Below the pieces are notes generated by a model. It had not been told where the DNA came from. It saw nothing but the letters and a program-made list of their open reading frames with translations, and made no database searches. Source: a virus. From it: a DNA stretch of 64,000 nt. The DNA is taken from positions 12,978 to 76,977 of the IMG/VR virus record IMGVR_UViG_3300037193_002017; one strand, written 5' to 3'. Below, in pieces: positions 5,391-50,798 of this stretch; the stretch's first letter is position 1, and every line of letters begins with the position of its first letter. Position numbers and translations under genes: made by a program.

Positions 5391-5397
5391 GATGGCT

Positions 5398-5433: not shown

Positions 5434-5443
5434 TTCTCGTATG

Positions 5444-6761: not shown

Positions 6762-6991
6762 GCGGTGACCTCCCCTCGCTGTATGTCGTTCGTGGCTCGT
6801 CACTATGCCGTCGTTCACGGCCATCCTCCCCCAGCCTGCGCCGCCATTCACCCCGAGGAGTGGCACCGTACCGGCGGTGGACAGGTGCCAGCCAGACCCC
6901 CACGTGTGTCTCGCGCCGACCTGCTGGCGGCGTTCCCGGTCGGGCATCGTGTGATGTCGACGCATCGGCCGGGTGGCTAGCCACCCGGGGG

Positions 6992-7186: not shown

Positions 7187-7261
7187 GCCGGGAAGCATAC
7201 GGGCAGCCACTGACAAAGCGATGAGAATTATCCGCCGCAGGGCCTTGGGTACGCTGCCCGC

Positions 7262-13573: not shown

Positions 13574-14086
13574 CTATGGGTCTGCAACCGCGTCGGGTTC
13601 GGCGGCTAGGCCCTGCAGATGCCGACGAGCGCGCCGATAGCGCGCCGCGATCCGCTCGACCTCCTCCGGGGTGGCGCCCTTCCGGCCTTGCAGGACGACG
13701 ATGATGTGCCCGTCCTCGTCATCGGGTCCCAGGTTGATGACCTGCGAGCCGAGTGTCTCGCCCGTCCTGAGCTCGTACTCGACTTCCGGCGACAGGCCCA
13801 GATCGGACGAAGAGGCCTCACTCGATGGACTCTTGCCTGACGCACTTTCGTCGAGCACCGGTCCGCCGGCCATGACGCGATCCTCGGCGCCCTCCGGCCA
13901 GCCGAGGAGTCTTGCGTACTTCCGCACGGTGGCGTTGATCCGGGTGAACTTGCCGTGCTCGATGTTCTGGATCGTGGTCCGGCTCACGCCGAGCGCCTCG
14001 GCGGCATCGCCCTGCTTGAGCCTCGGGCGTCGGCTTTCACGTGCTCTCTGAAGCTCAGAGCCAAGCCGCTTGGAGTCGTCGTCCAT
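13574..14086 (-). CDS. Immunity repressor (cI-like XRE HTH)
   Basis: KQGDAAEALGVSRTTIQNIEHG HTH; divergent from cro and upstream of int. Confidence 0.85.
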   Translation of the reverse strand: MDDDSKRLGSELQRARESRRPRLKQGDAAEALGVSRTTIQNIEHGKFTRINATVRKYARLLGWPEGAEDRVMAGGPVLDESASGKSPSSEASSSDLGLSPEVEYELRTGETLGSQVINLGPDDEDGHIIVVLQGRKGATPEEVERIAARYRRARRHLQGLAAEPDAVADP

Positions 14087-26205: not shown

Positions 26206-29061
26206 TCGGTTACGCGGTCAGCGGCGCCGACGTCCTCGGCGCAGCCTGCCCTCTCACCTTCCTGATCGCCGTACTGGCCATCTCGTACCTGACCTGGCGC
26301 GCCCGTCGGAGGAACCGATGAGCACTCCCACCCTGCCCTGCCCTGGATGCCCTGGTCGCCGCAAGCACGGCCACTACCTGTGCAACAGCTGCTGGCGCGC
26401 CCTGCCGTCCACCACCCGCGGCCGGCTTGCCCTCCGCGACGCCCGCGCATCCCTCCGCCTCCGCGAGCTCCACAAGGCACTCGCCGCCAACACCCCGATC
26501 GCGATCATCCGGGTCAGCCGATGAACACGCGCCTCTACGCCCACGCCAGCATGGCCGCCGCCGTGCTCCTCACCATCGGCGCCTGCTACACCGCCACCCT
26601 CGACGCCTGGTGGCCCGCCCTCGGGGGCCTCTTCCCCGCGGGCGTCCTCGCGTGGAACGCCCACCGCTGCTACACCCAGGCCCGCCGCGAGCAGGCCGTG
26701 CAGCAGCGACTGACGCGACTCACCCGCGACAAGACCGAGCCGTTCGTGCCGCGGCCTCCGTGCTGCTCGTTCTGGCGGCACACCAGCGGCCAGATGCACG
26801 GCCCCGACTGCACACGGCCGGCCACCGCGCGCACCGCCCTCACGCCCGCTGAAGAAGCCGCCTTCGCGCAGATCGCCGCGGAGTTCCATCGGACGGGAGG
26901 CCAGGCCAACCCGTGACCTCTCACCCCATCCCGGGCAACGCCGGTCACTGGTGGCTGGCGTGCGGCAAGTGGCGCCGCCTGCACGCCATCCCCGGCACGG
27001 CCATCGACCGCACCGATGAGGACGTCATGGACCGGCTCTGCTACCCGCCGGGCATCCCGGCCCGCGCCGCATGCGGGCTCCGGCGCGGCTGGCAGATGCC
27101 CGGGCTGTTCTCCCGCCTCGGCCGCCGCCGCTGCACCCCGTGCTGCCACGCCCTCAACATCCCCACCGGCTACGGCACCCCCGCCAACGAAGCATCGATC
27201 AAGGAAGGAACCACCCACCCATGATTCAGCAGCCCCAGCCCCGCTGGAACGGTGAGCCCTGCCAGGCCCGCCGCGTCACCGCCGTCGTCGCCGACAGCAT
27301 CTTCTTCCCCCTGTACTGGGCCCGCGAGTTCGTCGGTACGCGTCGTAAGGCCGTCGAGGTCACGTACGGGGGCCGCACCTTCTACCTCGACGACGAGGAC
27401 GGCTCCGGGTGGGCCAAGGTCACCGCAGGCGGCTCACCCGCCCACAGCCACCGTGGCCTCAACGTCGACCCCGACAGCATCCGGCTCCGCGTCGACCCCG
27501 ATCGGCCGTGCCTGCACGAGGACTTCGACGCCTTCGTCGGCGTCGGCCGCATCACCGCGAGCGAAACCGATCCCACCGTGATCGGCTACTCGGCCGAGAT
27601 CAGGGTGAACTGCCGGGCCTGCGGCGAGCCCTTCCGGTGGACCGGCGTCCCGGCCGGCCTCTCACCCCGCCAGCCGATGTGCAGCGTCGACGAGACCGAA
27701 CTGCGCGCCCCGCTCCGCCCGGCCTCGGCCGACCCGGACTTCGGTCTCGGCCTGCCCGGCTTCTCCGTCAACCACCGCAAGGACGGCTGACCGTGCTGCA
27801 GCACACCGGCCCGACTGTCGTCGACACCCGTATCTGGGACGGCAGCCGCGACCCCGAGCTCACCGCGTGGCTCGGCCCCAACGCCCACCACTACGAGGGC
27901 GAACAGCTCGTCATCGACAGCATCGACGGACCCGTGCGGCCCCGGCCCGGCTACCACCTGATCCTCTGGACCGACCGGGAGGTCACCGTTGCCGCGCCGC
28001 GAGTCGCCGAGCGGGTGTACGGGCCCGACGGTCTCTGCGGCCAACTGGCCCGCGCCCAGGCCGCCATCGAGGCGGTCCACGTTCTCGCCGTCCGCTGGGC
28101 GAAGGCCGGACCGCCGCTCGGCACGTCCATCGCGCGCTGGGTGGACGCCCGCCTCATCGAACTGAACACCGCCCTCGATAAAGCCAGGGAGTACTGACAT
28201 GGGTCTGGAGTTCACACAACCCACGCGGGTCTGGATCGGCCGCGAAGGCGGCTGGGAGCCGGTGGACGGCGTCGCCCACGTCCAGCTACAGGAGGAGGCC
28301 CTGCCCGTCGAGGACGCCAGCGTCGAGCTGGAGTTCAGCGTCAAGACACCGTCCAACGGGGTGCCGACCTGCCCGTCCGGCCGCCACCCCCAGCACACGC
28401 CCGACACCTGCGAGGAACACGAGGAACTCACGCAGGCCTTCCATGGCTTCATCGAGCTCCTTTTCGCAGCCGCCTTCGCCCAAGCCGAGCAGGCCGCCCG
28501 CCGCTACCAGCAGGCCCTGGCAGAGGCCTTCGCCGGCATCGACACCTGGGAGCCGCGCGGACTGTCGGCATGGCTCACCGAGCCAGAGCAGCCCACTCCG
28601 ATCGAGCGCGCCCTGCAGATCCTCGCCCCGCACCTCGCCCACGAGCCGCTTTACCAGCCCAACCACCGCTGGCTCAGGGCCGCTCCCGCCCCGCAGCCCA
28701 CCGACGAGCAGCCGGACGACACCGGCGAGGCCGCGCCGAGCACCGACCGGCCCGCCTGGCAGTCCCCGTACGGGCCGCCACCGAGGAGGCGCTGACGATG
28801 CAGCTGCACCTGATACGCACTGACCCCGTCCAGGAGATCGCGGCCGAGCCCGCCACCCTCGAACTCCTCATCACCGCCCTGGACGAAGCGACGCAACCGC
28901 GCCTGTCCTCACCCGAGTTGATCACCGCGTGCCGCAGCGGACTCGGCTGGCCGCTCGTCCCGGACGAGTCCATCTGCCCCGGGGCCGTCCACCTCCGTCC
29001 TGTACCCCGCCCGTCCGAGTGGCACAGCGGCACCGCACCCGCCGACTCGCCACAGCAGTAG
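26202..29061 (+). CDS. Run of coupled small genes (26202..26321, 26318..26524, 26521..26916, 26913..27224, 27221..27790, 27793..28197, 28199..28795, 28798..29061)
   Basis: Consecutive overlaps or short gaps; codon bias; some TM or Cys-rich. Confidence 0.65.
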
Positions 29062-29134
29062 ACGCCCCTCCCTACCCATCGGGTGGGGAGGACGACCCCG
29101 CCCCTGCCCCACCAGTACGAAGGGGAGCACACGC

Positions 29135-29818
29135 ATGATCTGCACCCTGTGCACGCACAACGAGCTCGAGTTCGGCAGCCTCTGCCCCTCCTGCACCCGC
29201 GCCACCCACGAACGCCTCACCCGCCTTCCCCGACTCTGGGCCTCCCTGGGGTCCTGGCTCACCCCCGGCGCCACCGGCAGCGCCCAGTACGGCGGTCGCG
29301 TCCGCCTCGCTGAGGCCCCCATGCCTCTCGACAGCGAGGTCCTGGACCTGATCGCCGAGGGCGGCATCGTCGGCGTCCTCGAGGACTGGCGCACCGCCGT
29401 CTACGAGACTCGCGGCTGGAGCCTGCCGCCCCGCGCGGCCAGCCTCGGTAACCGCGTCACCATCGCGGCCGGCGACCTCGACCACCATCTCGACTGGATC
29501 TCACGCTGGTACGCCGGCGAGGCCTTCGGCTGGGACATCCGCCGTCTCTTCCAGCGCGCCTCCCGCGTCGTACAGCCCGGCCACGACCTCGACCAGCCGA
29601 GGCCGACCTTCCTCGGCCACTGCATCGCCGTGGACTCCTCCGGGGTGGTGTGCGGGGCGAAGATCTACGCGGACATGCGCACGTCGGTGCAGTGTGAGTG
29701 GTGCCTGTGCCCGTACCCGCCCTCCACCTGGCTGACCCTGCGGCGTTTCCAGCCGGGCAACGAGCACCTGCACGACGAGGACCAGGACGAGCCCGACATG
29801 GAGCCGGTGGCCGCCTGA
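29135..29818 (+). CDS. Zn-binding phage protein, putative late-gene regulator N-terminal portion
   Basis: CTLC..LCPSC N-terminus, EAPMPLD, LGHC...CGAKI...CEWC; last gene of the early run. Confidence 0.6.
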   Translation: MICTLCTHNELEFGSLCPSCTRATHERLTRLPRLWASLGSWLTPGATGSAQYGGRVRLAEAPMPLDSEVLDLIAEGGIVGVLEDWRTAVYETRGWSLPPRAASLGNRVTIAAGDLDHHLDWISRWYAGEAFGWDIRRLFQRASRVVQPGHDLDQPRPTFLGHCIAVDSSGVVCGAKIYADMRTSVQCEWCLCPYPPSTWLTLRRFQPGNEHLHDEDQDEPDMEPVAA

Positions 29819-29908
29819 CATGCCGCCACGCCACGGCGTAGCGTGTGCCTGGACACGCGAGAGCCCCGCCGCCCCACTTCTCCTGGGGCGGCGGGGCTCG
29901 TCTGCGTT

Positions 29909-30169
29909 CTACGCCTCGTCGCCCTTCTCCAGGTCGGCGCGCTTGCCCTGGCGAATCCCTTCCTGGCGCGCTTTCCAGTACTGGTCGAACCAGGCCACGT
30001 CGTACTCCGGGCGCGAACTCCCGGGTCTGAACACAGGAGCCGGCCAGCCCTCGGCGGGGTTGGTCGCAAGCCGGTGGATGTATGTCCGGCTCACACCCGC
30101 TCGCTCTGCGAGTTTCGGGATGGTCATTGTCTCCCTCTCCGGCTCCTGCCGCTCGGGGGCATCGGGCAT
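29909..30169 (-). CDS. Small HTH (AlpA/Xis-like) regulator, Kor-like repressor candidate
   Basis: TIPKLAERAGVSRTYIHRL...WPAP; divergent from the membrane operon across a palindrome. Confidence 0.75.
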   Translation of the reverse strand: MPDAPERQEPERETMTIPKLAERAGVSRTYIHRLATNPAEGWPAPVFRPGSSRPEYDVAWFDQYWKARQEGIRQGKRADLEKGDEA

Positions 30170-30183
30170 GCGGACATCCTCCC

Positions 30184-30214
30184 CGAGAAGTGTGGACAAT
30201 GTCCACACTTCTCG
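30184..30214. promoter_or_regulatory. Perfect 15-1-15 palindromic operator between divergent promoters
   Basis: cgagaagtgtggaca-a-tgtccacacttctcg; -10-like TACGGT at 30216. Confidence 0.8.
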
Positions 30215-30318
30215 CTACGGTCGTTCTCGGCACAACGGAAAACCCCTCGACCCATGCGGAGTTGCAGCTCCGGGCCGAGGGGTGGACCCGTCCTGAAGCG
30301 AACGAAGGGAACAGGTCC

Positions 30319-30857
30319 GTGGCAGACACTACCCAGCCCGATCAGATCGACGTAGCCCTCAAGGTGCTGCTCGCCGAGCCCACCTACGCCGCACAGACCC
30401 TCACCAAGCTGGCCGGCCTCCTCCAACTGGACCCCGGCCAGCCGATGACCGGCCGCGACCTCGAGCGCGCCATCGACATCGCCGCCGAGGCCGTCCTCAC
30501 CCGACTGCCCGACGTCGTCGCCCGCGACAGCATGCAGCGCATGTACCGGGCCCTCCCGGACCGGTCGGCCACGGTCACCCGCGGCGAGTACGCCCTCCTC
30601 CTGCGCCAGGCTGCCAAGGACCTCGACGCCGTACGAGGTGACCGCCGATGAGCCGGAAACCCACCACGGCCGAGCGCGTCGCCGCGCTCCACCGCCAGTG
30701 CGCCGCCGACTACCGCGCCGCCCACGCGAACCACGACAGCGTCGACCACCTGGACCTCGTGCACGGCCTGGAGGTCGGCTACGACCCGCACGCCCAGGAC
30801 CTGAACACGCTGGCCACCGAGTCCGCCGCCGCACGCCTCGACCACGACGCCGACTGA
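30319..30857 (+). CDS. Two small coupled genes (30319..30651, 30648..30857) heading the membrane operon
   Basis: GAAGGGA RBS; ATGA overlap. Confidence 0.65.
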
Positions 30858-30929
30858 ACCCCGCCAGACCGCCGCGCCCCGGCACATCCCCCGGCCGGGG
30901 CGCGGCCTCCCCACGCACTGGAGTCCTTC

Positions 30930-32537
30930 GTGATCCTGGACCAGCCCTACGCGAGAGCGGCGGCCGAGTACTGGCCCACCGCCCTCGCCGCCGGCCTCCT
31001 CCTCACCACCCTCGCAGGCCTGTGCTGGCTGGTCGTGCGGCGTACCAGCGGCGCCGTCCTCACCGCCGGGATCGGCGCGCTCGTCTGCACCGCCTACACC
31101 GCCGACACCTCCTGGCGGTTCGCCGAGCACCGCCTGGACATGGCCGACCACACCGAGCGCCTGGTGATGTTCGCCGCCGGTGAGGTCGCCCTCCTCGCCT
31201 GCGCGGTCATGGCCCGAGCCAACAAACGCGCCACCGCCACCGAGGACACCGCCGGCACCCCCGGCGTACCCGGCGTACTCGTGTGGACCATCACCGGCGT
31301 CCAGGTCATCCCCGCCTACTCCGAGTCCGGCATCATCGGCGGCACCGTCCGCGCCGTCTTCGGCCCCGTCATGGCCGCCCTGCTCTGGCACCTCGCCATG
31401 GGCCTGGAGATCCGCGTCGCCAAACCGCAGGCCCTCTCCACCGGACTGCCCGCGCAGATCGGCCACGAGCTGCGCGAACGCCTGCTGTCCTACCTCGGAC
31501 TGGCGACCCGGAACCGTACCGCGGAACAGATCAGCCGCGACCGCGCGACCGCCCGCGCCGTACGCCTCGCCTCCCGCCGCCACCGCGGCTGGTGGGCCCG
31601 CGCCGCCCTCAAGGCCGCGGTGGCCCGCTCCGGGGCGGCCGTCGACGGCGAGCGCCGCCACCAGCTCCTGCAGCTGCTCGCCGCACGCCGTACCGCGGCC
31701 GAGCTGAGCACCGTACCCGTCGTCTCGCCGTGGGTAGCCCAGCCCCTACCCGAGCCCTACCCGCCTACCCCGCTCGGCGTCACCGGCGCCGAACTGCGCG
31801 CCATGGACCCGATGGACGCCATCCTCCGGATACACGCCGCACGGCCCGACGCGACGCCCGCAGAGACCGCCGCGCTGTGCACGGAGTACGGCGTACCCGT
31901 CTCCGAGACCCTCGTACGGGTAGCCCTCCGCGCGGGCAACCCCGACCCCACCCCGCCCCCCGCCCCGGCCGTACCCGAGCGGCCCCAGCTCCACGCCGCA
32001 CCCGCACCCGTGCCCGGCCCGCAGGACGCGCCCGTACCGGCCCTACCCGAGGCGGCCGAGCACGAGTACACCAGCCCCGGCCTGCACCTCGACCTCATCA
32101 CCGCCCCCCGGGTACACCCCCAGGTAGCCTGCGCCGTCCCCGCCGCCCACGCCCGTACCCGGCCCGGCCGCACCGAGGTACACGCCCGCCTACCCGAACA
32201 GCCCGAAGCCATCCAGCACACCACCGAGGGAGAACGCGCTACCCGGCCCGCGCAGCCCTCTACCCGGCCCGGGGTAGCCGCTCTACCCGAGCCCGTACCC
32301 GTACCCGGGGTAGACCCCAGGCCCGGCCCGGACGCCCTACCCCACCCCACGGGTACGGCGGGTAGGGACGGTGGCGGGGAGCAGGATCCGCTGCTCGACC
32401 GGGCCCGCGAGGTAGACGCCGCTCACCGCCGTACCCACCGCCGCCCGGCCAGCGTCCAGACCCTCAAGAAGGAGCTGCGGGTAGGGCAGAAGAAGGCCCA
32501 GCAGCTCCGTGACCTCCTCGCAGGCGAGCCCGCATGA
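30930..32537 (+). CDS. Spd-like polytopic membrane protein with Pro-rich linker and C-terminal wHTH
   Basis: About 5 N-terminal TMs; C-terminal PASVQTLKKELRVGQKKAQQLRD (FtsK-gamma-like); architecture recalls Streptomyces plasmid spread proteins. Confidence 0.65.
   Translation: MILDQPYARAAAEYWPTALAAGLLLTTLAGLCWLVVRRTSGAVLTAGIGALVCTAYTADTSWRFAEHRLDMADHTERLVMFAAGEVALLACAVMARANKRATATEDTAGTPGVPGVLVWTITGVQVIPAYSESGIIGGTVRAVFGPVMAALLWHLAMGLEIRVAKPQALSTGLPAQIGHELRERLLSYLGLATRNRTAEQISRDRATARAVRLASRRHRGWWARAALKAAVARSGAAVDGERRHQLLQLLAARRTAAELSTVPVVSPWVAQPLPEPYPPTPLGVTGAELRAMDPMDAILRIHAARPDATPAETAALCTEYGVPVSETLVRVALRAGNPDPTPPPAPAVPERPQLHAAPAPVPGPQDAPVPALPEAAEHEYTSPGLHLDLITAPRVHPQVACAVPAAHARTRPGRTEVHARLPEQPEAIQHTTEGERATRPAQPSTRPGVAALPEPVPVPGVDPRPGPDALPHPTGTAGRDGGGEQDPLLDRAREVDAAHRRTHRRPASVQTLKKELRVGQKKAQQLRDLLAGEPA
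31713..32484. repeat. Intragenic cluster of about 24 STACCC/GGGTAS hexamers
   Basis: Counted by eye; both orientations and several frames; about 5 more at 32950-33040. Confidence 0.75.
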
Positions 32538-32905
32538 ACCACGCTGCAGAGCCCCTGGACCTGGCCGCCGCCAGCACCCCCGCCAGCGCGTTACCGCACC
32601 GAAGGAACCCCGTGATACTCGCCGCCCTCGTGGCGCTCGGCCTGGCCCCCGGCCTGATCACCGCCGTACACGTGCACCGCACCCACGGCCCCGTCAGAGC
32701 CGCCCTCGCCGCCGCCGGCGTCACTCTCGCCCTGGCCGCCGCGCTGCTCGGCGTCCTCCTCGTCTTCCCGCCGCTCGCCATCGCCTGCGCGGCCGGATGC
32801 GTCCTGGCCGCGCTCCGCGCCTACGACCAGGCGCGCCTCACTGCGGCGAGCAGCTGGCTGAGCTTGGCCGGCCTGTTCGCGTGGTGTGCGAGGTGGCGGT
32901 CATGA
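32534..32905 (+). CDS. Multi-TM membrane protein (TTA codon at 32591)
   Basis: ATGA overlap; highly hydrophobic. Confidence 0.7.
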   Translation: MNHAAEPLDLAAASTPASALPHRRNPVILAALVALGLAPGLITAVHVHRTHGPVRAALAAAGVTLALAAALLGVLLVFPPLAIACAAGCVLAALRAYDQARLTAASSWLSLAGLFAWCARWRS

Positions 32906-33447
32906 GCAAGGACACCCCCATCGTCCCCACCCGCGTCATCCCCGCCGGCGTACCCCTGCCCGCCCGGCCCCCCGAGCCCGGCGAGGTACCCCCCTGGCGC
33001 ACCCCGCCTACCCCACCACCGGCTACCCCGCCCGTACCCCCTCCGCCTGCGCCGCCTGCGGAGCCTCAGGCCGTCGTCGTACGCCACGTCCACGAAGTGG
33101 TCCTGGTCGTCCCCGACCCCGAGCCGGAACCCCGGCTGTGGGAACGCCTCTGGGAACGGCTGTTCACGTGGCGGATGATCGCCGCGATCCTCGCCGCCCT
33201 CCTTCCGTGGGCGGCCGGGCAGAGCCCCGTCGGCCTGTGGTCCCACACCGTCCACCAGGCCCGCGCCGAGGCGGGGATCGTCGCTGCGTACGTCATCGCC
33301 GCCGTCGCCGTCGCCGCGACGTGGGCCCTGGACCGGCGTACCGGCCGTCTCGTGCCCCGCTTCCTCCTTGTCACCAGCTCACTCGGGGCGTTCGGCGTCC
33401 TGCACTGGTTCGACCCCATCACCCTGCTCACCGGAGTCCACCTGTGA
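32902..33447 (+). CDS. Membrane protein with Pro-rich N-terminus
   Basis: ATGA overlap; 3 TM segments. Confidence 0.7.
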   Translation: MSKDTPIVPTRVIPAGVPLPARPPEPGEVPPWRTPPTPPPATPPVPPPPAPPAEPQAVVVRHVHEVVLVVPDPEPEPRLWERLWERLFTWRMIAAILAALLPWAAGQSPVGLWSHTVHQARAEAGIVAAYVIAAVAVAATWALDRRTGRLVPRFLLVTSSLGAFGVLHWFDPITLLTGVHL

Positions 33448-33956
33448 CCGCCACCAACACCCTCACCATCGGCGGCCTCCTCGCCGCCCTGATCATCCTG
33501 ACCTGCAACCTCTACCCCTGGTGGACCGGCAACAGGGAGATGAAGCAGCTCTCTTCGTTCGGCAAGGGGTTCGGGGCCGCCGCCTGTGCCGCGGCGTGCC
33601 CGGGCGGCATCCTCGGCTGGGCTCACCACCGATCCGGAACCATCGCCAACGACACCGGCGAGAAGACCAGCACCGCCGTCACCGGCACATCCTCCGCCGC
33701 TGGCCTGACCACCGGGCAGCTCGTCGGCCTCGGCGCCACGGGCGCGGTCGTCGTGGTCATCGCGGTCACCCTCGTCGTCCTGTCGTACAAGGCGGCGGGG
33801 AAGAAAGACAAGAAGCGGATCATCGGCGGCGCCTTCGTCGGCTCCACGTTCTGCCTCACCGCAGGCGTCGCCGGGGCCCTGTCCTGGCTTCCTGCCGCCC
33901 TCAACGCGGCTGGCGGCGGCATCCTCGCCTTCTTCCAGGGCGCGGGCATCCTGTGA
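33444..33956 (+). CDS. Gly/Ala-rich multi-TM protein
   Basis: GTGA overlaps; hydrophobic hairpins. Confidence 0.7.
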   Translation: MTATNTLTIGGLLAALIILTCNLYPWWTGNREMKQLSSFGKGFGAAACAAACPGGILGWAHHRSGTIANDTGEKTSTAVTGTSSAAGLTTGQLVGLGATGAVVVVIAVTLVVLSYKAAGKKDKKRIIGGAFVGSTFCLTAGVAGALSWLPAALNAAGGGILAFFQGAGIL

Positions 33957-34543
33957 GCCGCCTCGCCTGTATCGCCGACCGTCTCGCCACCGGCTCCCGC
34001 CTCCACACCCGCCGCCTCGTGAACGGGGCCGTGGCCTGGTGCGCGCGCGGCCGACGCGACGACCTCAAGGGCTGGAAAGCGGCCCTCGGCATCATCGCCC
34101 GCCTCGCCCTCCTCGCCGTCGGCGCGTACGTACTGGCCCGCCTCGTACGGGCCCTGCCGTCCCTCATGTGGCTGCTCACCGGATGGTGGACGCTCGCCTC
34201 CTGGCGGGCCGGGAAACCCGCCGACACCCCCCAGGAGAAGGCCCCCGAGGGGCGATCGGTGGAGGCCGACCGGGAGGCCGTCCGCACCCTCCTGCTCACG
34301 GTCATGGGGGAGGCGGACAAGGTGCACCTCCGGGCCGTCCTCGCCCACCTCCACCAACAGGGCCAGTGGGAGGGCCGCACGGTCACCGATATGCGCCACC
34401 GACTGGCCGCCCTGGACATCCCCTTCGACCGCTCCGTGAAGGTGGCCGGAATCCCCACCTGGGGGGTCCGCCGAAACGACCTGCAGACCCCTTCCCCAGC
34501 CACCGCCGAGGAAGCGTCTCCCACCGCGTCTACCGCCGCCTGA
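33953..34543 (+). CDS. Membrane-anchored wHTH protein resembling TraB without its ATPase domain
   Basis: 2 TMs then DKVHLRAVLAHL...W....DMRHRLAALDIP....VKV.G..TWGVRRNDL; no Walker A motif. Confidence 0.6.
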   Translation: MSRLACIADRLATGSRLHTRRLVNGAVAWCARGRRDDLKGWKAALGIIARLALLAVGAYVLARLVRALPSLMWLLTGWWTLASWRAGKPADTPQEKAPEGRSVEADREAVRTLLLTVMGEADKVHLRAVLAHLHQQGQWEGRTVTDMRHRLAALDIPFDRSVKVAGIPTWGVRRNDLQTPSPATAEEASPTASTAA

Positions 34544-34602
34544 CCTGCACGTCTACCGGCCGTCTACCGCCATCTACCGATGCATCTACCGGCCGTCTAC
34601 CG
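34527..34602 (+). repeat. Six direct repeats CRTCTACCG (clt/TRS-like array)
   Basis: Copies start at 34527, 34550, 34561, 34571, 34583 and 34594. Confidence 0.85.
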
Positions 34603-34620
34603 GCCAGAGAGGGGGCCGTC

Positions 34621-35065
34621 GTGCCCAAGTACACGTACCAGTCCGCGCCCGGGCTGAGGGTCCGCACCACGAACTACCGCGGCAGCGCCCAGGAGTTCGC
34701 GGACGCGCTCGCCGAAGACTGCCGCGCAGATCACGGCGTTGAGCCGGACGTGCGTGTGTGGAACGGCGAAGGGCCGGTAACCGAGCCGCCCGCCGCAACC
34801 GCACCGTGACGCGTCTCCCATAAGCCCCGGGGCGGCCGCCCCTCCGCCAAGAAGTACGGCCGCCCCGGTCACCCATCCCGAACGAGACAGGAGCACCATC
34901 ATGGGCCTGTTCACCCGCAAAACCGAGACCGACCTCCTCGCCGACACTGTGGCCAGCCTCCCGCCCCAACCGGCCAACTGGACACCCGAGCAGTACGCCC
35001 AGTTCACCCAGCAGTCGAACCGCGCCATGCGCGAGCAGAACGGTGTAGACCCGGACGCCGACTGA
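34621..35065 (+). CDS. Two small genes (34621..34809, 34901..35065)
   Basis: GAGGGGG and AGGAG RBSs; followed by a hairpin at ~35085-35128. Confidence 0.55.
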
Positions 35066-35173
35066 CACCCCCTGCCACACTGAAGCCGTAGGCCCCGCCG
35101 CGCCCCCCCGTCGCGCCGGGGCCTACGCCATGTCCGCGTGCGGCCCGCGACGACCCGGACCATCCTGAGGGGT

Positions 35174-35389
35174 ATGTCCCCGCTGCCGCTGGTCGTCGTC
35201 TACCCGCCCGACGAGGACGGCGGCCGCCGCGTACGCGCCGGAGGCGAAATCCTCGGCCTCGCATACGACCTGAACGACCTGGTGGAGTTCCTCCGACGAG
35301 CAGGCCTGGACGACTGGGACGCTCTCGACGCACGCACCAGCGGCCTGATCGAATGGCGCGGCGGCGGCCCCGACACCTGGCCCCCGTGA
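35174..35389 (+). CDS. Small conserved Streptomyces hypothetical protein
   Basis: GGRRVR.GGEILGLAY...LVEFLRRAGL...IEWRGGGP. Confidence 0.7.
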   Translation: MSPLPLVVVYPPDEDGGRRVRAGGEILGLAYDLNDLVEFLRRAGLDDWDALDARTSGLIEWRGGGPDTWPP

Positions 35390-35419
35390 CGACCCGCCCC
35401 GCCTCGTGCCGCGGAACCG

Positions 35420-35890
35420 TCAGATGATCGGCGACCCTGGCTGCAGTTCCTCCAGCTGACCGAACTCGTCCCGACTCCAGCGGACCCCGTTGTCGTCCGT
35501 GAAGTGGAGCGCCGGCCTGCTCCGGTCCACCGTGTCCTCCGTCCACCGCGGCGACTCGAAGTCCACGCTGCGTCCGCCACCGATCAGATGCACGGGGACC
35601 GTACGCCGCCCTCCGTCAGGCAGGCCGCGTGCCTCGACCTCGGCGGCCGCCGCAGCGTTATACACGCCCCCGAAGCGCACCATCACGTCATGAATCGGAG
35701 CGCCGCTGCCGTTCACGACCGTCACATCCCACCGGTCATACCCGGTGTCATCGCCGTACCCGTTCGTCCCAGTACTGCCTGCGGTCCGGAACGTCATCTC
35801 CACCTGGCGCGCCTGAGCGACCCGCCGTTCAGCGGCAAGAGCACGCAACTCCTCGCGCTCCAGCCGCGTGGCGAGGTCGCCTACGTCCAC
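35420..35890 (-). CDS. Hypothetical accessory protein
   Basis: AGGAG RBS; VVNGSGAPI.DV...FTDDNGVRW.R motif. Confidence 0.6.
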   Translation of the reverse strand: MDVGDLATRLEREELRALAAERRVAQARQVEMTFRTAGSTGTNGYGDDTGYDRWDVTVVNGSGAPIHDVMVRFGGVYNAAAAAEVEARGLPDGGRRTVPVHLIGGGRSVDFESPRWTEDTVDRSRPALHFTDDNGVRWSRDEFGQLEELQPGSPII

Positions 35891-35974
35891 TGCGCTCCTG
35901 TCCTTGATCGCTACTCGCTGCGCACCACCACGGGCACGGCATTTTGCTTCGCCGCGACGGGCGCACTCTCCCGC

Positions 35975-36451
35975 CTATGCGGCCTTCAACTCATCGGTGG
36001 TCATCGTGAACTGCAGCGACGTGCCACCGCCCATGATCGTGTACGTGTCCTTGGGGCACGGCGAGCCATCAATCCCGGCGTTGGGGTCGCCCAGGCACTC
36101 ATGCTCGGTATACGCGTCGACGGCCTTGTTGATCTTCTCAATCTCCTTCATGGAGCGCGGGTACGCCTCCTCGGCCCCGGCGTCCTGGATGGCGGACTCG
36201 AGATCGGAGACGACCAACGCGATGTCTGTGAGGTGTTCAGCGCAGGCCTGATCGCCGACCTCAGCACAGACGCCGGACCGACCCTCGGTAGCTTCCTCCA
36301 GCTTCGGAATCCACTCGCTGGACAACCCGGAGACCGAGGCGCTGGGTGATGTGCTCGTGTCCGTGCCGCCGCCACCTTCGCTGGACGTACAGCCCGTTAC
36401 CCCGAGCACGAGTGCGGCTACGAGCGTGACGGCCGCGCGTGTGTGATGCAT
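35975..36451 (-). CDS. Lipoprotein (superinfection-exclusion candidate)
   Basis: Signal peptide with lipobox VTGC, Ser/Thr linker, two Cys pairs. Confidence 0.7.
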   Translation of the reverse strand: MHHTRAAVTLVAALVLGVTGCTSSEGGGGTDTSTSPSASVSGLSSEWIPKLEEATEGRSGVCAEVGDQACAEHLTDIALVVSDLESAIQDAGAEEAYPRSMKEIEKINKAVDAYTEHECLGDPNAGIDGSPCPKDTYTIMGGGTSLQFTMTTDELKAA

Positions 36452-36608
36452 GAGTTGCCCCCCTTGCTGGTGCGGCGAGGGTAGGACACTAGGTGCCCGC
36501 AGTGAGCAGGAAACCGCCCGATTGCCCAGCCCGTTCTGGGCCCAAGGCGCCTGCGCCTCCGTCCGCCCGGCCTGCCGTCCTGCATCCCACAGGTGGCATC
36601 CTGAGCGC

Positions 36609-36809
36609 ATGAGCGACCCCATGATCGTGGACATCTACGCCGCCGCTCTCAGTGTCGCGCAGAAGCCTGGCACCATCCGTCAGTGGATCCACCGGGGCGA
36701 GATCACACACCGCGGCTACGACAAGCGCCGCCGCGTCCTCGTCGACCTTGACGAGTTGCAACGGGTCGTGCACGACAAGGCGCTGCGGGCCCGCCAGGAA
36801 GCGGCTTGA
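36609..36809 (+). CDS. Small HTH protein upstream of the late operon
   Basis: AAALSVAQKPGTIRQWIHRG.I....R.LVDLDEL. Confidence 0.75.
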   Translation: MSDPMIVDIYAAALSVAQKPGTIRQWIHRGEITHRGYDKRRRVLVDLDELQRVVHDKALRARQEAA

Positions 36810-36950
36810 CCACTGCTCTGACCTCCTGTAACACTCGACCCACGTTCAGCATGTCCAAACATGCTTCACAAAACGCCCCCAACGGGCACCACAGACCGCA
36901 TGGCGAAGGCCCCGAGAGCATCTGACTCCGGGGCCTTCGCCATGCCCAGG
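36806..36950 (+). promoter_or_regulatory. Putative late promoter followed by a long leader hairpin
   Basis: TTGACC-N17-TAACAC; gcatggcgaaggcccc...ggggccttcgccatgc stem. Confidence 0.5.
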
Positions 36951-37047
36951 CGCCCGCCGCACGGCAGGCCGCTCACGCCATGGCCCCCAGCCACGGCCCG
37001 CTGCAGCCGTACGACGGGCGCCCCAGCCCACGCGGGAGGTGACCCCG

Positions 37048-39879: not shown

Positions 39880-40182
39880 ATGAGCGATCAACCGAAACGT
39901 GTCCGAGCCGGAGCCGTCGCCAAGGCAACCGCCGCCGAGCTCGATGACCTGGGGCTTGACCCGAAGACGAACGCCGCTGCGGCCTCCGCCCTCCGCCTCG
40001 CGAAGGTCATGGACTCGACTGCCGACCCCAAGGAGCTCGCCGCCGCCGGGCGCGAGCTCCGCCAGACCATGAATACAGCGCGTGGCCTCGCTCCCCCGAA
40101 GGCGCTCGGCGACCGGATCGACCAGCTGGCCGACCGGCGCGAGAAGCGGCTCTCCCCTCGGGCCGCTAAGGGCACCGCGTGA
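39880..40182 (+). CDS. terS: Terminase small subunit
   Basis: Position; LA..MD...ELRQT...IDQLADRR.KR pattern. Confidence 0.8.
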   Translation: MSDQPKRVRAGAVAKATAAELDDLGLDPKTNAAAASALRLAKVMDSTADPKELAAAGRELRQTMNTARGLAPPKALGDRIDQLADRREKRLSPRAAKGTA

Positions 40183-41741
40183 TCGGCTGCCAGACACCGC
40201 GGATCCTGTCCGTGCCGTGGTACCGACGCGTGGACACGGGGCGGTGGGACGGCACCGAGGACCAGGTCGCGCTGGACTTCCGCTCGCCCGCGGGCACGGA
40301 GTGCATCGAGCTCGCGGAGGAGGCGGGCCTCGACCTCGACATCTGGCAGCAGCTCGCCCTGCACCACAGCCTCGACGAGGATGCCGAGGGCCGGTGGACG
40401 TCGCTCGAGGTCGTCCTCAACATCGCGCGCCAGAACGGCAAGGGCGGATACCTCGAGGCCAGACAGATCGGCGGCGTGATCCTCTTCGGGGACGAGCTCG
40501 TCATCCACACCGCGCACCAGTTCAACACCGCGCAGGAGAGCTTCCTTCGGCTCGACCGGATCTTCGAAGGGTCCGCGTCACTGAGTCGCCGCATCAAGCG
40601 CGTACGCCGCTCGCATGGCGAGGAGGGCTTCGAGTTCTTCAACGGCGCCAGGATCCGTTTCCTGGCGCGGGGCGGGGACAGCGGCCGCGGGTTCTCCGGT
40701 GACCTGGTCATCATGGACGAGGCCATGAAGCTGCGGGCCGCGCCCGTGGGCGCCCTCATGCCGGTGCTGTCCGCCCGCCGCAACCCTCAGCTCGTGTTCA
40801 CCGGGTCGGCCGGTCTGGGGGCTGAGAGCGAGCAGCTGGCGCTGCTGCGGGCCCGTGCGATGGCGGAGGAGGGCGGGCCGGACCCGTCTTTGACGTACCT
40901 GGAGTACTCGATCGCGCCGCACGTGAAGGAGTGCCCGCGCGATGAGGACGGCCGGGTCGTGTGCACGGCTCATGACGACCGGGACGACGAGCGGTCGTTC
41001 GCCCGGGCCAACCCGGCGCTGGGCATCCGGATCCGCACGTCGTACGTACAGCGGGAGATGCGGGGCATGCGTGAGGACCTGTTCGACCGTGAGCGCCTCG
41101 GTGTGGGGGACTACCCGGAGGTCAGCGACGAGACGTGGCAGGTCATCGCGAAGGAGGCCTGGGAGGCGCTCACGGACGCCAGCTCGCGTCCGACGGACCC
41201 GGTGGCGTTCGCCATCGACACCAACCCGGAGCGGACGTGGACGGCCATCTCGGTGGCCGCCGAGTCGTCGGGCGGTGGCCGGCACATCGAGGTCGTTGCC
41301 CACCAGCCCGGCACGGACTGGGTCGTGGACTGGGTTGCTGAGCGTGACGAGAAGTGGAAGCCATGCGCGTGGGTCATCGACGAGGGCGGTCCGGCCGGGT
41401 CGCTTGTGCCAGCGCTGCGGAAGAAGCTGGCCGGGAAGCACCCGGTGGGCAGCGACCTGGGGCGCGATCGCTTCCTGGTGTCGCCAAAGGTGCGGGAGAT
41501 CGTGCAGGCCTGCGGCGCCTTCTACGACCGGGTGAAGGACGGCTCACTCGCCCACATCGGCCAGTCACCGCTGGCGACCGCTCTCGCCGGCGCGAAGAAG
41601 CGCGACCTGGGTGATGCGTGGGCGTGGGCACGGCGCAGTGAGGGTGTGGACGTGAGCCCGCTGGTGGCCGGGACGTATGCGTTGTGGGGCTGGGAGAAGT
41701 TCCACGACGAGGAGCCGGAAGGGGCGCCGAACCTGTGGTGA
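40179..41741 (+). CDS. terL: Terminase large subunit
   Basis: ARQNGKG Walker A, GRGFSGDLVIMDEA Walker B, ANPALG, nuclease domain. Confidence 0.95.
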   Translation: MIGCQTPRILSVPWYRRVDTGRWDGTEDQVALDFRSPAGTECIELAEEAGLDLDIWQQLALHHSLDEDAEGRWTSLEVVLNIARQNGKGGYLEARQIGGVILFGDELVIHTAHQFNTAQESFLRLDRIFEGSASLSRRIKRVRRSHGEEGFEFFNGARIRFLARGGDSGRGFSGDLVIMDEAMKLRAAPVGALMPVLSARRNPQLVFTGSAGLGAESEQLALLRARAMAEEGGPDPSLTYLEYSIAPHVKECPRDEDGRVVCTAHDDRDDERSFARANPALGIRIRTSYVQREMRGMREDLFDRERLGVGDYPEVSDETWQVIAKEAWEALTDASSRPTDPVAFAIDTNPERTWTAISVAAESSGGGRHIEVVAHQPGTDWVVDWVAERDEKWKPCAWVIDEGGPAGSLVPALRKKLAGKHPVGSDLGRDRFLVSPKVREIVQACGAFYDRVKDGSLAHIGQSPLATALAGAKKRDLGDAWAWARRSEGVDVSPLVAGTYALWGWEKFHDEEPEGAPNLW

Positions 41742-41986
41742 ACGACGACCAGGCGGAAGACGCGAACAGCCGTGACCGAGCGGGCCGTTGGCTGGTGATC
41801 CTCGAGACGGTGTTTGTCCTGGTCATCGTGGCGGGCGTCGCGCTCGTGCATGTGCCGGGCGCGCTGATGCTGGCCGGGGTGCTGGGGGTGCTGGCGTGCG
41901 AGCGCGCGCTGGCCCGGCGCCAGGCCGAGGAACGTGTCCCTGGGGAGGGGCGCGGTGGGGAAGCGGCGGGAGGTGAGCGGCAGTGA
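41738..41986 (+). CDS. Small 2-TM protein between terL and portal
   Basis: GTGA overlaps; hydrophobic. Confidence 0.7.
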   Translation: MNDDQAEDANSRDRAGRWLVILETVFVLVIVAGVALVHVPGALMLAGVLGVLACERALARRQAEERVPGEGRGGEAAGGERQ

Positions 41987-43302
41987 CAGCTGGGTTGTTC
42001 GGCCTGTTCGACGGGCGGTCGAGGAGGGGGCTGGAGAGCCCGGCGCAGCCGCTCACCTCCGCCGCGCTGGCGGAGTACCTCGGTGGCGTGCAGTCGGACG
42101 CCGGGGTGCCGGTATCGGAGACGACCGCACTGCGGGCGTCACCAGTGTGGCGGGCTGTGGCGCTGATTGCCGGGGTGTCGGCGGCGCTGCCGCTGCCGAC
42201 ATACAAGGAGGGCACGCGAGAGAAGCAGGCCGCTGACCTGCTGAAATACCCGCATCCCGATCTCACGCCGGTGGAACTGTGGCGGTTCGCGTACCTGTAC
42301 CGGGTGCTGTGGGGCAACACGTACATCCAGAAGGTGCGCGACGGGGCCGGCCAGATCCGGGAGCTGTGGCCGGTGTCCGCCGATCGGGTCCGCGTGGATC
42401 GGATCAAGCCGGACGAGGCGAACCCCACCGGCAAGCTGTTTGACGTCGTGGACGACTGGGGCGTGCACCACGTGTGGACGCCCCATCAGATGCTGCACAT
42501 CCCTGGCCTGGGGTACGACGGCCTCACCGGCTGCTCACCCGTACGGCTGGCCACACAGGGCATCGGCCTGGCGCAGGCCGCCGAGAAGTCGGCGGCCCGT
42601 CTGTTCGGGTCGGGCAACATGATCGGCGGCGTGCTGCAGACCGAGCAGCGCCTCGACCCGGACCAGGCCGCCCGGCTGAAGGAACGCTGGAAGGCCAAGA
42701 TGTCCGGCGTCCACAACAGCCACGAGATCGCCGTGCTCGATTCGGGCGCCAGCTTCAAACCAGTGCAAATGCCGAACACCGACGCCCAGTTCCTCGAGAG
42801 CAGGCAGTTCCAGGTCACGGAGATCGCCCGCATGTTCGGCGTGCCGCCGTTCCTGCTGATGTCCACCGAGAAGAGCACCAGCTGGGGGACGGGGCTGGAG
42901 CAACAGGCGCAGGGCTGGGTCACGTTCGACCTCAACCCGACATGGCTGACGCCGACCGAGCAGCGCGTGACCAAAGAGCTGCTGCCACGGTCGCTGTACG
43001 CGAACTACCAGATGGGCGGCCTGCTGCGCGGCGACTCGGCGGCGAGAGCCACGTTCTACCGGGCAATGCGCGACATCGGCGCCTACAGCGCGAACGACAT
43101 CCGGGCGCTCGAGGAGATGCCGCCGCTGACGGAGAACGGCGACGTCTACCTGCAGCCCATGTACATGGCACCGCTCGGGTCCAACCCCCTCGACCCTGGC
43201 GGGGAGGCGCCGGCGGGCTCGAACCGGGCGCGGGCGGCCGCGCTGATGGCGGAGGCACAGCGTCTGTTGCAGACGCCTGACGATGCTGAGGAAGGCACCT
43301 GA
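41983..43302 (+). CDS. HK97-family portal protein
   Basis: LWGNTY, GCSPV, DAQFLESR...IARMFGVPP, NDIRALE. Confidence 0.95.
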   Translation: MTAGLFGLFDGRSRRGLESPAQPLTSAALAEYLGGVQSDAGVPVSETTALRASPVWRAVALIAGVSAALPLPTYKEGTREKQAADLLKYPHPDLTPVELWRFAYLYRVLWGNTYIQKVRDGAGQIRELWPVSADRVRVDRIKPDEANPTGKLFDVVDDWGVHHVWTPHQMLHIPGLGYDGLTGCSPVRLATQGIGLAQAAEKSAARLFGSGNMIGGVLQTEQRLDPDQAARLKERWKAKMSGVHNSHEIAVLDSGASFKPVQMPNTDAQFLESRQFQVTEIARMFGVPPFLLMSTEKSTSWGTGLEQQAQGWVTFDLNPTWLTPTEQRVTKELLPRSLYANYQMGGLLRGDSAARATFYRAMRDIGAYSANDIRALEEMPPLTENGDVYLQPMYMAPLGSNPLDPGGEAPAGSNRARAAALMAEAQRLLQTPDDAEEGT

Positions 43303-44537: not shown

Positions 44538-44605
44538 CCCGTACTCACCCCGAAGGCCCGTGACCAGCTGGTGCGGGCCTTCGCCATGTCTGAAAGAGGA
44601 AGCAC

Positions 44606-45850
44606 ATGAGCGAGCAGCTCAGGCGGCTCATCGACGAGCAGAACACCCTGTGGCAGCGGATGCAGGACATCCAGACTGCCGCCGAGGGCGAGAAGCGCGA
44701 CCTTACCGCCGAGGAGCGGCAGAACTGGGACCAGGCGGAGGAACGGCTCACCGTCGTCTCCGGGGACATCGAGCGCCTCAACCGCATGGCCCAGATGTCG
44801 AAGATCGACCGCAGCCAGATCGCCGTCACCACCGGCGAGCCGGAGGGCCGCCGCGGCGGCGACCCCGGGGAGCAGGCGAAGCGGTACGCCGAGACCTTCG
44901 GGGCGTACCTGCGCGGCGGCATGGACCGGCTCACGCCGGACCAGCGGAACCTGATGATGGACCACGAGGTCGACCTGCGCGCGATGAGCGCGGGCATCGA
45001 CACCGCCGGCGGGTTCACCGTGCCGGACGAGTTCCGCAACATCATGACCGAGACGATGAAGGCATACGGCGGCCTCCTCGCCCTGGCCGACGTCATCACG
45101 ACCTCGACGGGCGCCGACCTGAAGTGGCCGACCAACGACGACACCGGCAACGAGGGCGAGATCCTCGGCGAGAACGACGAGGCCGGCGAACAGGACCTCA
45201 GCGTCGGCGGCCGGACGCTGAAGGCGTACACCTTCTCCTCCAAGCAGGTGAAGCTGTCCATGCAGCTCCTGCAGGACTCGGCGTTCAACCTCGAGACGTG
45301 GGTGCCCAGGAAGCTCGGCGAGCGCATCGGCCGCCGCGCAGCCCGCGCGTTCACCACCGGCACCGGCGTCGACCAGCCCGAGGGCCTGGCCACCAGCGCG
45401 GCCGTCGGCAAGCAGGGCGCCTCCGGCCAGACCACGTCGGTCATCTACGACGACCTGGTCGACCTCGAGCACTCCGTCGACAGCGCGTACCGGCCCAACG
45501 GCAGGTACCTCATGCACGACTCGACCCTGAAGGTGATCCGCAAGCTGAAGGACACCCAGGGCCGCCCGCTGTGGGTTCCGGTCCCGGCCCCCGGCTTCCC
45601 TTCGACGATCAACGGCTTCGAGTACTCGCTCGACAACTCGATGCCCACCCCGGCCGCGTCCGCAAAGACGATCGCGTTCGGCGACTTCAAGGCCGGCTAC
45701 GTCATCCGCCAGGTGCAGAGCGTGCAGACGCTGCGCCTGAACGAGCGGTACGCCGAGAAGCTGCAGGTCGGTTTCCTGGGGTTCGCCCGCCTCGACGGCA
45801 TGATCCAGGACTCGTCCGCGATCCGCATGTACCAGCACGCCGCCAGCTGA
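44606..45850 (+). CDS. Major capsid protein (HK97 fold with delta domain)
   Basis: GGFTVP, S.QLLQDS, GTG..QPEGL, LKDTQGRPLW, FGDFK. Confidence 0.95.
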   Translation: MSEQLRRLIDEQNTLWQRMQDIQTAAEGEKRDLTAEERQNWDQAEERLTVVSGDIERLNRMAQMSKIDRSQIAVTTGEPEGRRGGDPGEQAKRYAETFGAYLRGGMDRLTPDQRNLMMDHEVDLRAMSAGIDTAGGFTVPDEFRNIMTETMKAYGGLLALADVITTSTGADLKWPTNDDTGNEGEILGENDEAGEQDLSVGGRTLKAYTFSSKQVKLSMQLLQDSAFNLETWVPRKLGERIGRRAARAFTTGTGVDQPEGLATSAAVGKQGASGQTTSVIYDDLVDLEHSVDSAYRPNGRYLMHDSTLKVIRKLKDTQGRPLWVPVPAPGFPSTINGFEYSLDNSMPTPAASAKTIAFGDFKAGYVIRQVQSVQTLRLNERYAEKLQVGFLGFARLDGMIQDSSAIRMYQHAAS

Positions 45851-50795: not shown

Positions 50796-50798
50796 CCG

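Follow-up and report, generated by a model that had tools for sequence, protein, structure and literature searches.

A membrane-protein module with cognate-looking repeat arrays in a temperate Streptomyces phage and its ties to plasmid transfer operons

Why would a complete tailed phage of Streptomyces carry, in the slot between its early and its packaging genes, an operon of membrane proteins that resembles the spreading (spd) operons of plasmids? The question is raised by IMGVR_UViG_3300037193_002017, a 76,977-bp provirus record of IMG/VR with a CheckV completeness of 100%, of which positions 12978-76977 were analyzed (64,000 nucleotides, ~70% G+C; hereafter, the window, whose coordinates are used throughout). 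The phage is of the temperate, siphovirus type, and the module under study occupies 29.9-35.4 kb. With a probability put at about one half, temperate Streptomyces phages of the VWB/Kromp type share it as a conserved accessory module, one that is evolutionarily tied to the tra/spd operons of plasmids and of actinomycete integrative and conjugative elements (AICEs) and that distributes phage DNA. The best-supported mechanism is membrane tethering of phage DNA by two of its proteins (g4 and g8) via cognate arrays, probably for distribution within the mycelium. This reading is built on the anatomy of the module, the homology and synteny of its genes, the conservation of its arrays and the absence of a DNA motor, to which DNA binding by g4 and g8, membrane tethering and spreading are added as predicted steps.

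Anatomy of the module and its repeat arrays

Genes were called from frame plots of G+C content at third codon positions (GC3), which place g2-g11 in one operon on the plus strand. The module and its left border consist of the following features (HTH, helix-turn-helix; TM, transmembrane; ORF, open reading frame).

29135-29818: u227, Cys-rich 227-aa protein (phrog_1467), directly upstream of the module
29861-29899: inverted repeat, perfect over 16 bp and with a 7-nt loop, flanked by the stop codons of u227 (29818) and g1
29909-30127, minus strand: g1, 72-aa HTH protein, called from GC3 phase, a ribosome-binding site with ATG, and weak HTH matches
30184-30214: perfect 15-1-15 palindrome CGAGAAGTGTGGACA-A-TGTCCACACTTCTCG, 31 bp, in the divergent g1/g2 region
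30319-30651 (alternative start 30199), plus strand: g2, soluble 110-aa protein (phrog_28251)
30648-30857, plus strand: g3, acidic 69-aa protein, called from the GC3 frame plot
30930-32537, plus strand: g4, 535-aa SpdB-like protein (alignment and AlphaFold2 model)
31746-32484, plus strand: [C/G]TACCCG array in the linker-coding part of g4 (k-mer counts)
32612-32905 (longest ORF from ATG 32534), plus strand: g5, small membrane protein (phrog_34269)
32902-33447, plus strand: g6, membrane protein with a Pro-rich N-terminus (phrog_15316; Kromp gp83)
33444-33956, plus strand: g7, 170-aa polytopic membrane protein (phrog_16379, E 3e-62; Kromp gp84)
33953-34543, plus strand: g8, 196 aa, with an N-terminal helix, a TM hairpin (residues 41-86) and a C-terminal winged helix (residues 103-178)
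34529-34602, plus strand: six direct TCTACCG repeats, spaced by 23, 11, 10, 12 and 11 bp, across the g8 stop and the following spacer
34621-34809, plus strand: g9, small soluble protein at the distal end of the operon
34901-35065, plus strand: g10, small soluble protein (Kromp gp86)
35138-35389, plus strand: g11, small soluble protein (phrog_17005)

Hydrophobic TM segments are present in g4, g5, g6, g7 and g8, and start and stop codons overlap at g2/g3 (ATGA), g5/g6 (ATGA), g6/g7 (GTGA) and g7/g8 (GTGA). A first, sequence-only reading of the window had described five translationally coupled membrane proteins, one of them encoded with a rare TTA codon; all five are indeed membrane proteins and the three junctions from g5 to g8 overlap, whereas g4 and g5 probably do not. 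The homologues of g5 begin at the residue equivalent to GTG 32612, so that the sole TTA (32591) probably lies upstream of the g5 start, in a 74-nt spacer between g4 and g5, rather than in a gene. Pfam and NCBIfam searches of g2-g11 returned no significant match, and in PHROGs, g2, g5, g6, g7, g8 and g11 fall in function-less phage families.

The AlphaFold2 model of g4 has four long N-terminal helices, a confident helical region at residues 198-253, a middle HTH-like domain at 286-335 (predicted local distance difference test score, pLDDT, ~89), a disordered Pro-rich linker at 338-484 and a C-terminal three-helix HTH at 487-531 (pLDDT 95); an Arg-rich helical region is also part of the layout. 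The winged HTH (wHTH)-like end that had been read from the sequence is thereby retained as an HTH, without a predicted wing and with an additional HTH-like domain in the middle of the protein. The g4 family comprises >1146 clusters at 90% identity, exclusively from Streptomyces-type genomes and all annotated as hypothetical. In its alignment, the TM domain is almost invariant, the middle HTH-like segment and the C-terminal HTH are conserved, and the Pro-rich linker is hypervariable.

It is in the codons of this linker that the first repeat array lies. Ten of the 15 CTACCCG copies in the window fall within 31746-32484, and the core TACCCG occurs in the g4 tail 13 times on the plus strand and five times on the minus strand. 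These copies lie in different reading frames and use GTA and CTA codons, which are rare here and account for a local dip in GC3. The comparison covered g4 loci from 49 species-representative Streptomyces genomes and 74 IMG/VR loci (123 together), plus VWB, Kromp and plasmids. Most g4 homologues in the 49 genomes have a dense array at the same linker-coding position, the motif being lineage-specific: CGTACCCG (up to 20-23 copies), CGCACCC, CGCAGCCG, CGCATCC, TGAGCCCG, GGGGACCG or GTACCTG. The g4 gene holds 20 of the 22 CGTACCCG copies in 21 kb of one locus (L008) and 28 of the 29 GGGGACCG copies in 21 kb of another (L053). Among the IMG/VR loci, the top 7-mer reaches at least 8 copies in 44 of the 72 (out of 74) that could be scored. 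Arrays are likewise found in VWB gp24 (CGCACCC, 14 copies), in Kromp gp82 (CGGACAC, 10 copies) and in plasmid homologues of g4 (GGTTCCG, 11 copies; CGCGACA, 13-24; CGGCACA, 7); there is none in pZL12.73c, in two other plasmid copies or in pIJ101 spdB. Across loci, the copies lie mainly on one strand and in all three frames, indicating that the repeat is a DNA-level element tolerated by the disordered linker. An origin as a by-product of amino-acid repeats was rejected, given copies in all three frames and on both strands and the rare GTA/CTA codons.

The motif also varies in step with the protein. Motif-spectrum similarity tracks the identity of the last 48 residues of g4 when TM-domain identity is controlled for (partial Mantel r = 0.45, p = 0.001), while the reverse test, on the TM domain with the C-terminal HTH controlled for, gives 0.14 (p = 0.057). 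Homologues with a different C-terminal domain (L046, L051, L053) carry entirely different motifs. This covariation fits self-recognition by the C-terminal HTH, and the array is a candidate cis site for an HTH domain of g4.

A second array accompanies g8, for which the model predicts a C-terminal winged helix with H-b-H-H-b-b topology (pLDDT ~82), as had been anticipated for the last of the membrane proteins. Its Foldseek/VIA matches are nearly all to generic winged-helix domains and are weak (E > 0.1, Z 5-6.2). Homologues of g8 number ~200, including Kromp gp85 and a mis-called ORF of VWB, and are 192-207 aa long except for one partial sequence; no longer or fused forms were found, which leaves the 565-position profile of phrog_5650 without explanation. 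Of nine TCTACCG copies in the window (~4 expected per 64 kb), six stand in 34529-34602. TCTACC copies recur at the same site after most of the examined g8 homologues and in Kromp, two loci (L012, L015) mix TCTACC with TCTCCC, VWB and L049 carry TCTCCC/TCTCC variants, and L029 is without an array. Conserved and phased by helical turns, 34529-34602 is a candidate g8 binding array. The early claim that the first and last membrane proteins each have a repeat array of their own is thus borne out. As a side observation, the conserved C-terminal S-T-A-A of g8 (34520-34543) is encoded by one TCTACCG copy, and this conserved tail may reflect selection on the DNA site.

Plasmid relatives and the missing motor

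On plasmid pSVH1, spdB3-spd79-spdB2 is essential for pock formation, and SpdB2, an oligomeric four-TM protein, forms pores, binds double-stranded DNA non-specifically and contacts the C-terminus of TraB (Thoma et al. 2015, PMC4447253). As in the Spd systems of pSVH1 (SpdB2) and pIJ101 (SpdB), the phage module appears to be a repressor-controlled operon of small, coupled and poorly conserved membrane proteins, and, as in SpdB2, a key member combines four N-terminal TM helices with a C-terminal domain predicted, in g4, to contact DNA. The differences are equally clear: the module lacks TraB and a GntR-type repressor, its host element is a tailed phage, and g4 genes carry lineage-specific repeat arrays, in contrast to the non-specific binding reported for SpdB2.

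The genomic company of g4 homologues leads to the same plasmid operons. By tblastn, the g4 TM domain was matched on 39 actinomycete plasmids (Streptomyces, Mycobacterium, Kitasatospora, Prauserella, Pseudonocardia and others). A 17-kb pWTY27-like plasmid of S. canus (NZ_CP108819, L004) has the order GntR - traA - traB - 175-aa ORF - g4-like ORF, the last being 38% identical to g4 over 139 residues (E 2e-16). In the plasmid-phage pZL12, pZL12.73c is the g4 homologue; it belongs to an operon that diverges from a GntR gene and is found two genes upstream of an FtsK-like tra gene. Like Spd systems, therefore, g4 homologues adjoin traB on plasmids (S. canus plasmid, pZL12), and the link to plasmid spread modules that had been proposed for the whole set of membrane proteins stands for g4, though not for g5-g8; tblastn of g7 and g8 against plasmids found nothing apart from one marginal match.

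The C-terminal HTH of g4 also aligns with that of small DUF2637+HTH proteins (hhalign E 2e-5, probability 77%), whose genes directly adjoin genes for 500-550-aa FtsK-like proteins in five Streptomyces genomes, presumed to be AICE Tra genes. These proteins are built like g4, with four TM helices followed by a Pro-rich linker and an HTH at the C-terminus, and the hhalign result marks that HTH as homologous; unlike g4, they are shorter (~210-240 aa) and their genes lack arrays, and the TM domain of g4 did not match the DUF2637 HMM or profile. Membership of g4 in DUF2637 was tried and rejected: PF10935 had no match in the phage record at E <= 0.001, none of 28 g4 homologues matched it in Pfam, and hhalign of the TM part against DUF2637 alignments was negative. 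Separately, one Streptomyces chromosome (L061, 2001-2500) shows a 199-aa DUF2637 ORF followed by 12 copies of GCGAACA; other examined DUF2637 genes were without an array.

Other routes gave little. pIJ101 SpdB had no match among phages at E <= 1, Foldseek on the whole g4 model had none, and neither had a PDB sequence search with profiles A1 (the g4 alignment) and A2. Protein-language-model neighbors of g4-type proteins include SpdB_N (PF27080) and HTH_SpdB_C (PF27079) clusters, with scores of 0.84-0.87 that serve as leads only. Because of its architecture and the genomic company of its homologues, g4 is called SpdB-like, a designation short of proven family membership.

The second plasmid parallel is TraB, an FtsK-like translocase that recognizes 8-bp TRS repeats, located at the 3' end of its own gene, through a C-terminal wHTH (PMC4447253, PMC3583192). 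The phage shares the arrangement of a membrane-anchored protein, a C-terminal HTH or wHTH, and 7-9-bp direct repeats at or in the 3' end of its own gene, the g8 array having the same format and position; in format, the phage arrays match the clt loci of pWTY27 and pJV1 (PMC3583192). Unlike TraB, g4 and g8 have no ATPase domain. The suggestion that g8 is a motor-deleted TraB was not upheld by hhalign; since g8 has no sequence similarity to TraB-like proteins, the "mini-TraB" idea rests on architecture only.

The g4 array, moreover, is distinct from the known plasmid sites. The same k-mer scan found three separate arrays on the S. canus plasmid: CTTCCCA, CTGACAC and CGCGACA (regions 1-1200, 6000-7200 and 7800-8600). 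CTTCCCA corresponds to the Rep iteron DR2 of pWTY27 (TTCCCAC), and CTGACAC, at the traB 3' end, to the pWTY27 clt repeat TGACACC, which is bound by TraA (PMC3583192); CGCGACA sits in the g4-like gene. A prophage locus with its own TraB-like gene (L151) shows a similar separation: CGGAACC is found in g4, and CTGACAC where the TraB gene ends (3'). Together, these separate arrays indicate that the g4 array is neither a Rep iteron nor the clt of TraB. The description of the phage repeats as clt-like can be kept for their format, with the correction that a co-occurring TraB has a different array of its own. In the literature searched, the CGCGACA array of the S. canus SpdB-like gene had no assigned binder.

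No DNA motor accompanies these sites in the phage. FtsK_SpoIIIE (PF01580) had no match in the whole 76,977-bp record, and a hidden Markov model (HMM) built from 27 Streptomyces FtsK-family domains, with TraB of the S. canus plasmid, Tra of pIJ101 and the DUF87 protein of an S. goshikiensis plasmid as positive controls, found nothing in the window, in agreement with the first reading, which had seen no FtsK/TraB ATPase there. An FtsK/TraB domain is also absent near 112 of the 123 homologous loci. Among the 49 genomic loci, the custom HMM had one match (L050), and in two complete chromosomes the nearest FtsK-domain gene lies 125 kb and 41 kb from g4.

The remaining loci show what can occupy the same place. 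In 10 of the 74 IMG/VR loci, an FtsK/TraB-like ORF is found 1-2.5 kb downstream of the g4-like gene; motor ORFs of 675-1014 aa directly follow the g4-like gene in L158 (9782-18902), L148, L151, L160, L161, L162, L165, L168 and L050, and Pfam FtsK_SpoIIIE scores above cut-off in three of six motor ORFs tested, with L158 just below. The motor-bearing IMG/VR loci have u227 upstream in 9 of 10 and, in four (L148, L151, L158, L162), also a terminase or portal gene downstream, as in the order u227 - g4-like - 719-aa FtsK-like - terL - portal of L158. Such loci would be tailed phages with a conjugation-type DNA translocase. The trio g6-g8 is found in none of the 11 TraB-bearing loci vs 35 of the 112 others, and these 11 relatives, mostly prophages, have the TraB-like ATPase in the same slot instead of g6-g8. 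The slot between early and packaging genes thus holds alternative versions of one module, some with a motor. This connects the module with DNA translocation and rules out that the version in the window is an AICE remnant of recent decay.

The same anatomy of TM anchors, HTH and winged-helix domains and cognate-looking arrays would also suit a membrane-attached organizer of replication or segregation, in which g4 and g8, in the manner of phi29 p16.7 or a membrane-bound centromere-binding protein, bring replicating phage DNA to the membrane through the arrays, either to organize its replication or to partition copies among the many chromosomes of a compartment, with no crossing of septa. Phage phi29 p16.7 is a membrane-anchored phage DNA-binding protein, and the cis sites of lambda O (ori) are placed within the linker codons of the O gene itself, an arrangement that the g4 array recalls; neither protein is homologous to those of the module, and both act in replication rather than transfer. 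With its phasing of ~11 bp, the g8 array is reminiscent of parC or iteron arrays, and such an organizer needs no motor, matching its absence. This explanation, one of two live rivals, is nonetheless unlikely. Plasmid homologues of g4 lie in tra/spd rather than rep/par operons and coexist with separate Rep iterons (CTTCCCA of the S. canus plasmid), g4 comes together with a TraB-like translocase in sister prophages, which points to transfer rather than replication, and the replication genes of the phage lie upstream in a separate operon.

Recurrence, regulation and genomic setting

Two cultured phages carry the same module, with all genes annotated as hypothetical. In VWB (gp20-gp27 region), homologues were found of g1 (gp21), g2 (gp22), the g4 C-terminus (gp24), g6, g7 and g8 (mis-called as gp25/gp26) and g11 (gp20); in Kromp, of g2, g6, g7, g8, g10 and g11 (gp75 and the gp82-86 region), the g2 homologue being gp75, while gp82 is g4-like by architecture and array only. 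Both arrays are present in VWB (CGCACCC and TCTCCC), and the array motifs differ between phages, Kromp gp82 having CGGACAC. With respect to the VWB annotation (AY320035; L002, locus 4967-6807), gp25 (416 aa) and gp26 (253 aa) seem to have been called in the wrong frames; homologues of g6, g7 and g8 are found at locus positions 5106-5702, 5711-6214 and 6223-6810.

Of the 49 genomic g4 loci, 21 have the early gene u623 on the upstream side and ~15 a terminase or portal gene downstream, and in 10-11 the g6-g7-g8 trio follows g4. The most constant left neighbor of g4 homologues is u227 (14 of the 49 genomic and 36 of the 74 viral loci), and g2 is conserved upstream of g4. The synteny survey that had been proposed therefore shows that the ATPase-less module recurs in complete form in VWB, in Kromp and in many prophages from various species, the opposite of homologues that always accompany a full traB. 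Pairwise ratios of nonsynonymous to synonymous substitution (dN/dS) are 0.2-0.54 for the N-terminal part of g4 and 0.3-0.7 for g7, values that overstate relaxation, dS being compressed by the extreme GC3 bias.

These data bear on the idea that the module is a decaying, functionless remnant of an AICE or plasmid that lost traB. Its homology to the plasmid tra/spd neighborhood is real and some relatives still carry a TraB-like gene. Against it stand ORFs that are all intact, with lengths conserved across hundreds of homologues and no frameshifts seen, the shared gene order, arrays and an operator that are conserved or co-vary, and the dN/dS of 0.2-0.54 for the N-terminal part of g4, so that this origin is very improbable and largely refuted by the conservation data.

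The module also appears to have its own control region. The small divergent HTH gene and the perfect 31-bp palindrome reported by the first reading are both present, g1 being backed by GC3 phase, by weak HTH matches (HTH_31/HTH_3 in Pfam; HTH/excisionase regulators of the Xis/AlpA-like type in PHROGs) and by VWB gp21, to which it is 42% identical; its longest ORF extends to 30208. The label of a Kor-type repressor does not hold for this 72-aa protein, which has no GntR match in the Pfam search. The five loci whose g1 homologues are closest (63-93% identity: L014, L037, L041, L035, L030) all contain the palindrome core GTGTGGACA[A/T]TGTCCACAC, which in four cases is part of a longer palindrome. 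No such core was found in three loci where g1 matches are weak (L018, L043, L047) or in four examined loci without g1, one of which (L007) has a different palindrome. This co-occurrence points to a co-inherited cassette and supports g1 as the candidate repressor of the module and the palindrome as its candidate operator, Kor-like in role and analogous in position. On the left, the inverted repeat at 29861-29899 is likely a bidirectional terminator that insulates the module from the early operon.

Such autonomy would also fit a prophage-expressed exclusion or defense device. Its membrane complex would keep incoming DNA, whether of superinfecting phage or of Tra/Spd-dependent conjugative plasmids and AICEs, from entering or spreading, either because their spread machinery is poisoned or because the DNA is captured at the membrane. 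The repressor and operator, the hairpin that separates the module from the lytic operons, and the wide variation among relatives of the membrane proteins after g4, typical of exclusion cassettes, all suit this view. In a plant metatranscriptome (X5), exact short contigs cover g1, g4, g7 and g8 and none cover 34607-37000, a pattern that would weakly favor exclusion; DNA carry-over is possible, and the contigs are not evidence of expression. Exclusion is, however, quite unlikely: the phage carries the cis arrays in its own genome and these co-vary with the HTH that it encodes, favoring action on self DNA, and conservation of the module extends to the isolated and sequenced phage Kromp as well as to the temperate phage VWB.

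Other sequencing data add little. Four runs of one study (X1-X4) show that the sample contains the phage, nothing more, and three partial reads in a raw-read RNA run (X9) are uninformative. In run X1, contig depth is ~21-32 over 29000-34557 vs 12 from 34528 on, with breaks at several module borders; this depth shift and these breaks probably reflect another, related element in the sample that has the module in common with the phage.

The remaining landmarks of the window agree with its description as a complete tailed phage, with an integrase, a repressor-like HTH gene, terminase, portal, major head protein and tape measure.

11660-13036, minus strand: integrase (PHROG phrog_1, E 8e-21; no Pfam integrase model matched at E <= 0.01)
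13574-14086, minus strand: HTH_31 repressor-like gene
14.4-29.8 kb, plus strand: long rightward early operon (GC3 frame plots)
40170-41741: terminase large subunit
41977-43302: portal
44594-45850: major head protein
50796-54605: tape measure

A proposed tethering mechanism and its implications

In the proposed mechanism, g1 would act as a repressor at the palindromic operator and control the membrane-protein operon. The products g4 (four TM helices and HTH domains) and g8 (TM hairpin and winged helix) would be membrane-anchored, sequence-specific DNA binders, each recognizing a short-repeat array in or just after its own gene. Binding to the arrays would tether the phage genome to the hyphal membrane or to septal cross-walls, and g4 and g8, together with the polytopic g5-g7, would allow phage DNA to be distributed between hyphal compartments without lysis. 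Because this lineage lacks the TraB-like motor of its sister prophages, the driving force is proposed to be a host FtsK-type translocase or passive flow. Homologues of SpdB2 in phages (phiC31, VWB) and a role in spreading phage DNA have been suggested before (Thoma 2015, PMC4447253), so the spreading hypothesis for phage is already in print as a suggestion; the literature searched contained no paper describing the phage module, its arrays or the TraB-bearing prophages.

Several points weigh against distribution of phage DNA as the function of the module. No motor is encoded here, yet plasmid spreading needs TraB, and an integrated prophage has no need of spreading once it is established. Sequence ties to the plasmid proteins are partial: the g4 alignment had no hhalign match to pIJ101 SpdB, g4 has no detectable similarity to Pfam DUF2637, and g5-g8 have no detectable plasmid homologues. 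The covariation of motif and HTH could be confounded by physical linkage, as the array abuts the HTH codons, and the dN/dS of g8 is high (0.73-0.9), subject to the same GC3 bias. Membrane tethering through cognate arrays would nevertheless account for these proteins and their sites at the odds given at the outset.

A bolder version, in which a self-contained, conjugation-derived apparatus of g4, g8 (as membrane-anchored, site-specific DNA binders) and their cognate arrays moves or partitions the phage genome in the mycelium without virions, driven by its own TraB-like motor in sister prophages or by a borrowed host motor of the FtsK type in this lineage, is possible but doubtful. If true, it would mean non-lytic cell-to-cell spread of a bacterial virus, and SpdB-type proteins would be generally sequence-specific, with cis sites hidden in their own linker codons.

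The module links two open questions, namely how temperate phages become established in multigenomic, compartmented hyphae and how Spd proteins move DNA when Streptomyces conjugates. It also offers handles on both: the candidate pairs of g4 HTH with TACCCG-type arrays and of g8 winged helix with TCTACC arrays, natural variants of this phage slot that either have or lack a TraB-like motor, and two cultured phages, the temperate VWB of S. venezuelae and Kromp. Since SpdB-like genes of plasmids hold arrays that are neither clt nor Rep iterons, the view that SpdB2 binds DNA non-specifically would have to be revised.

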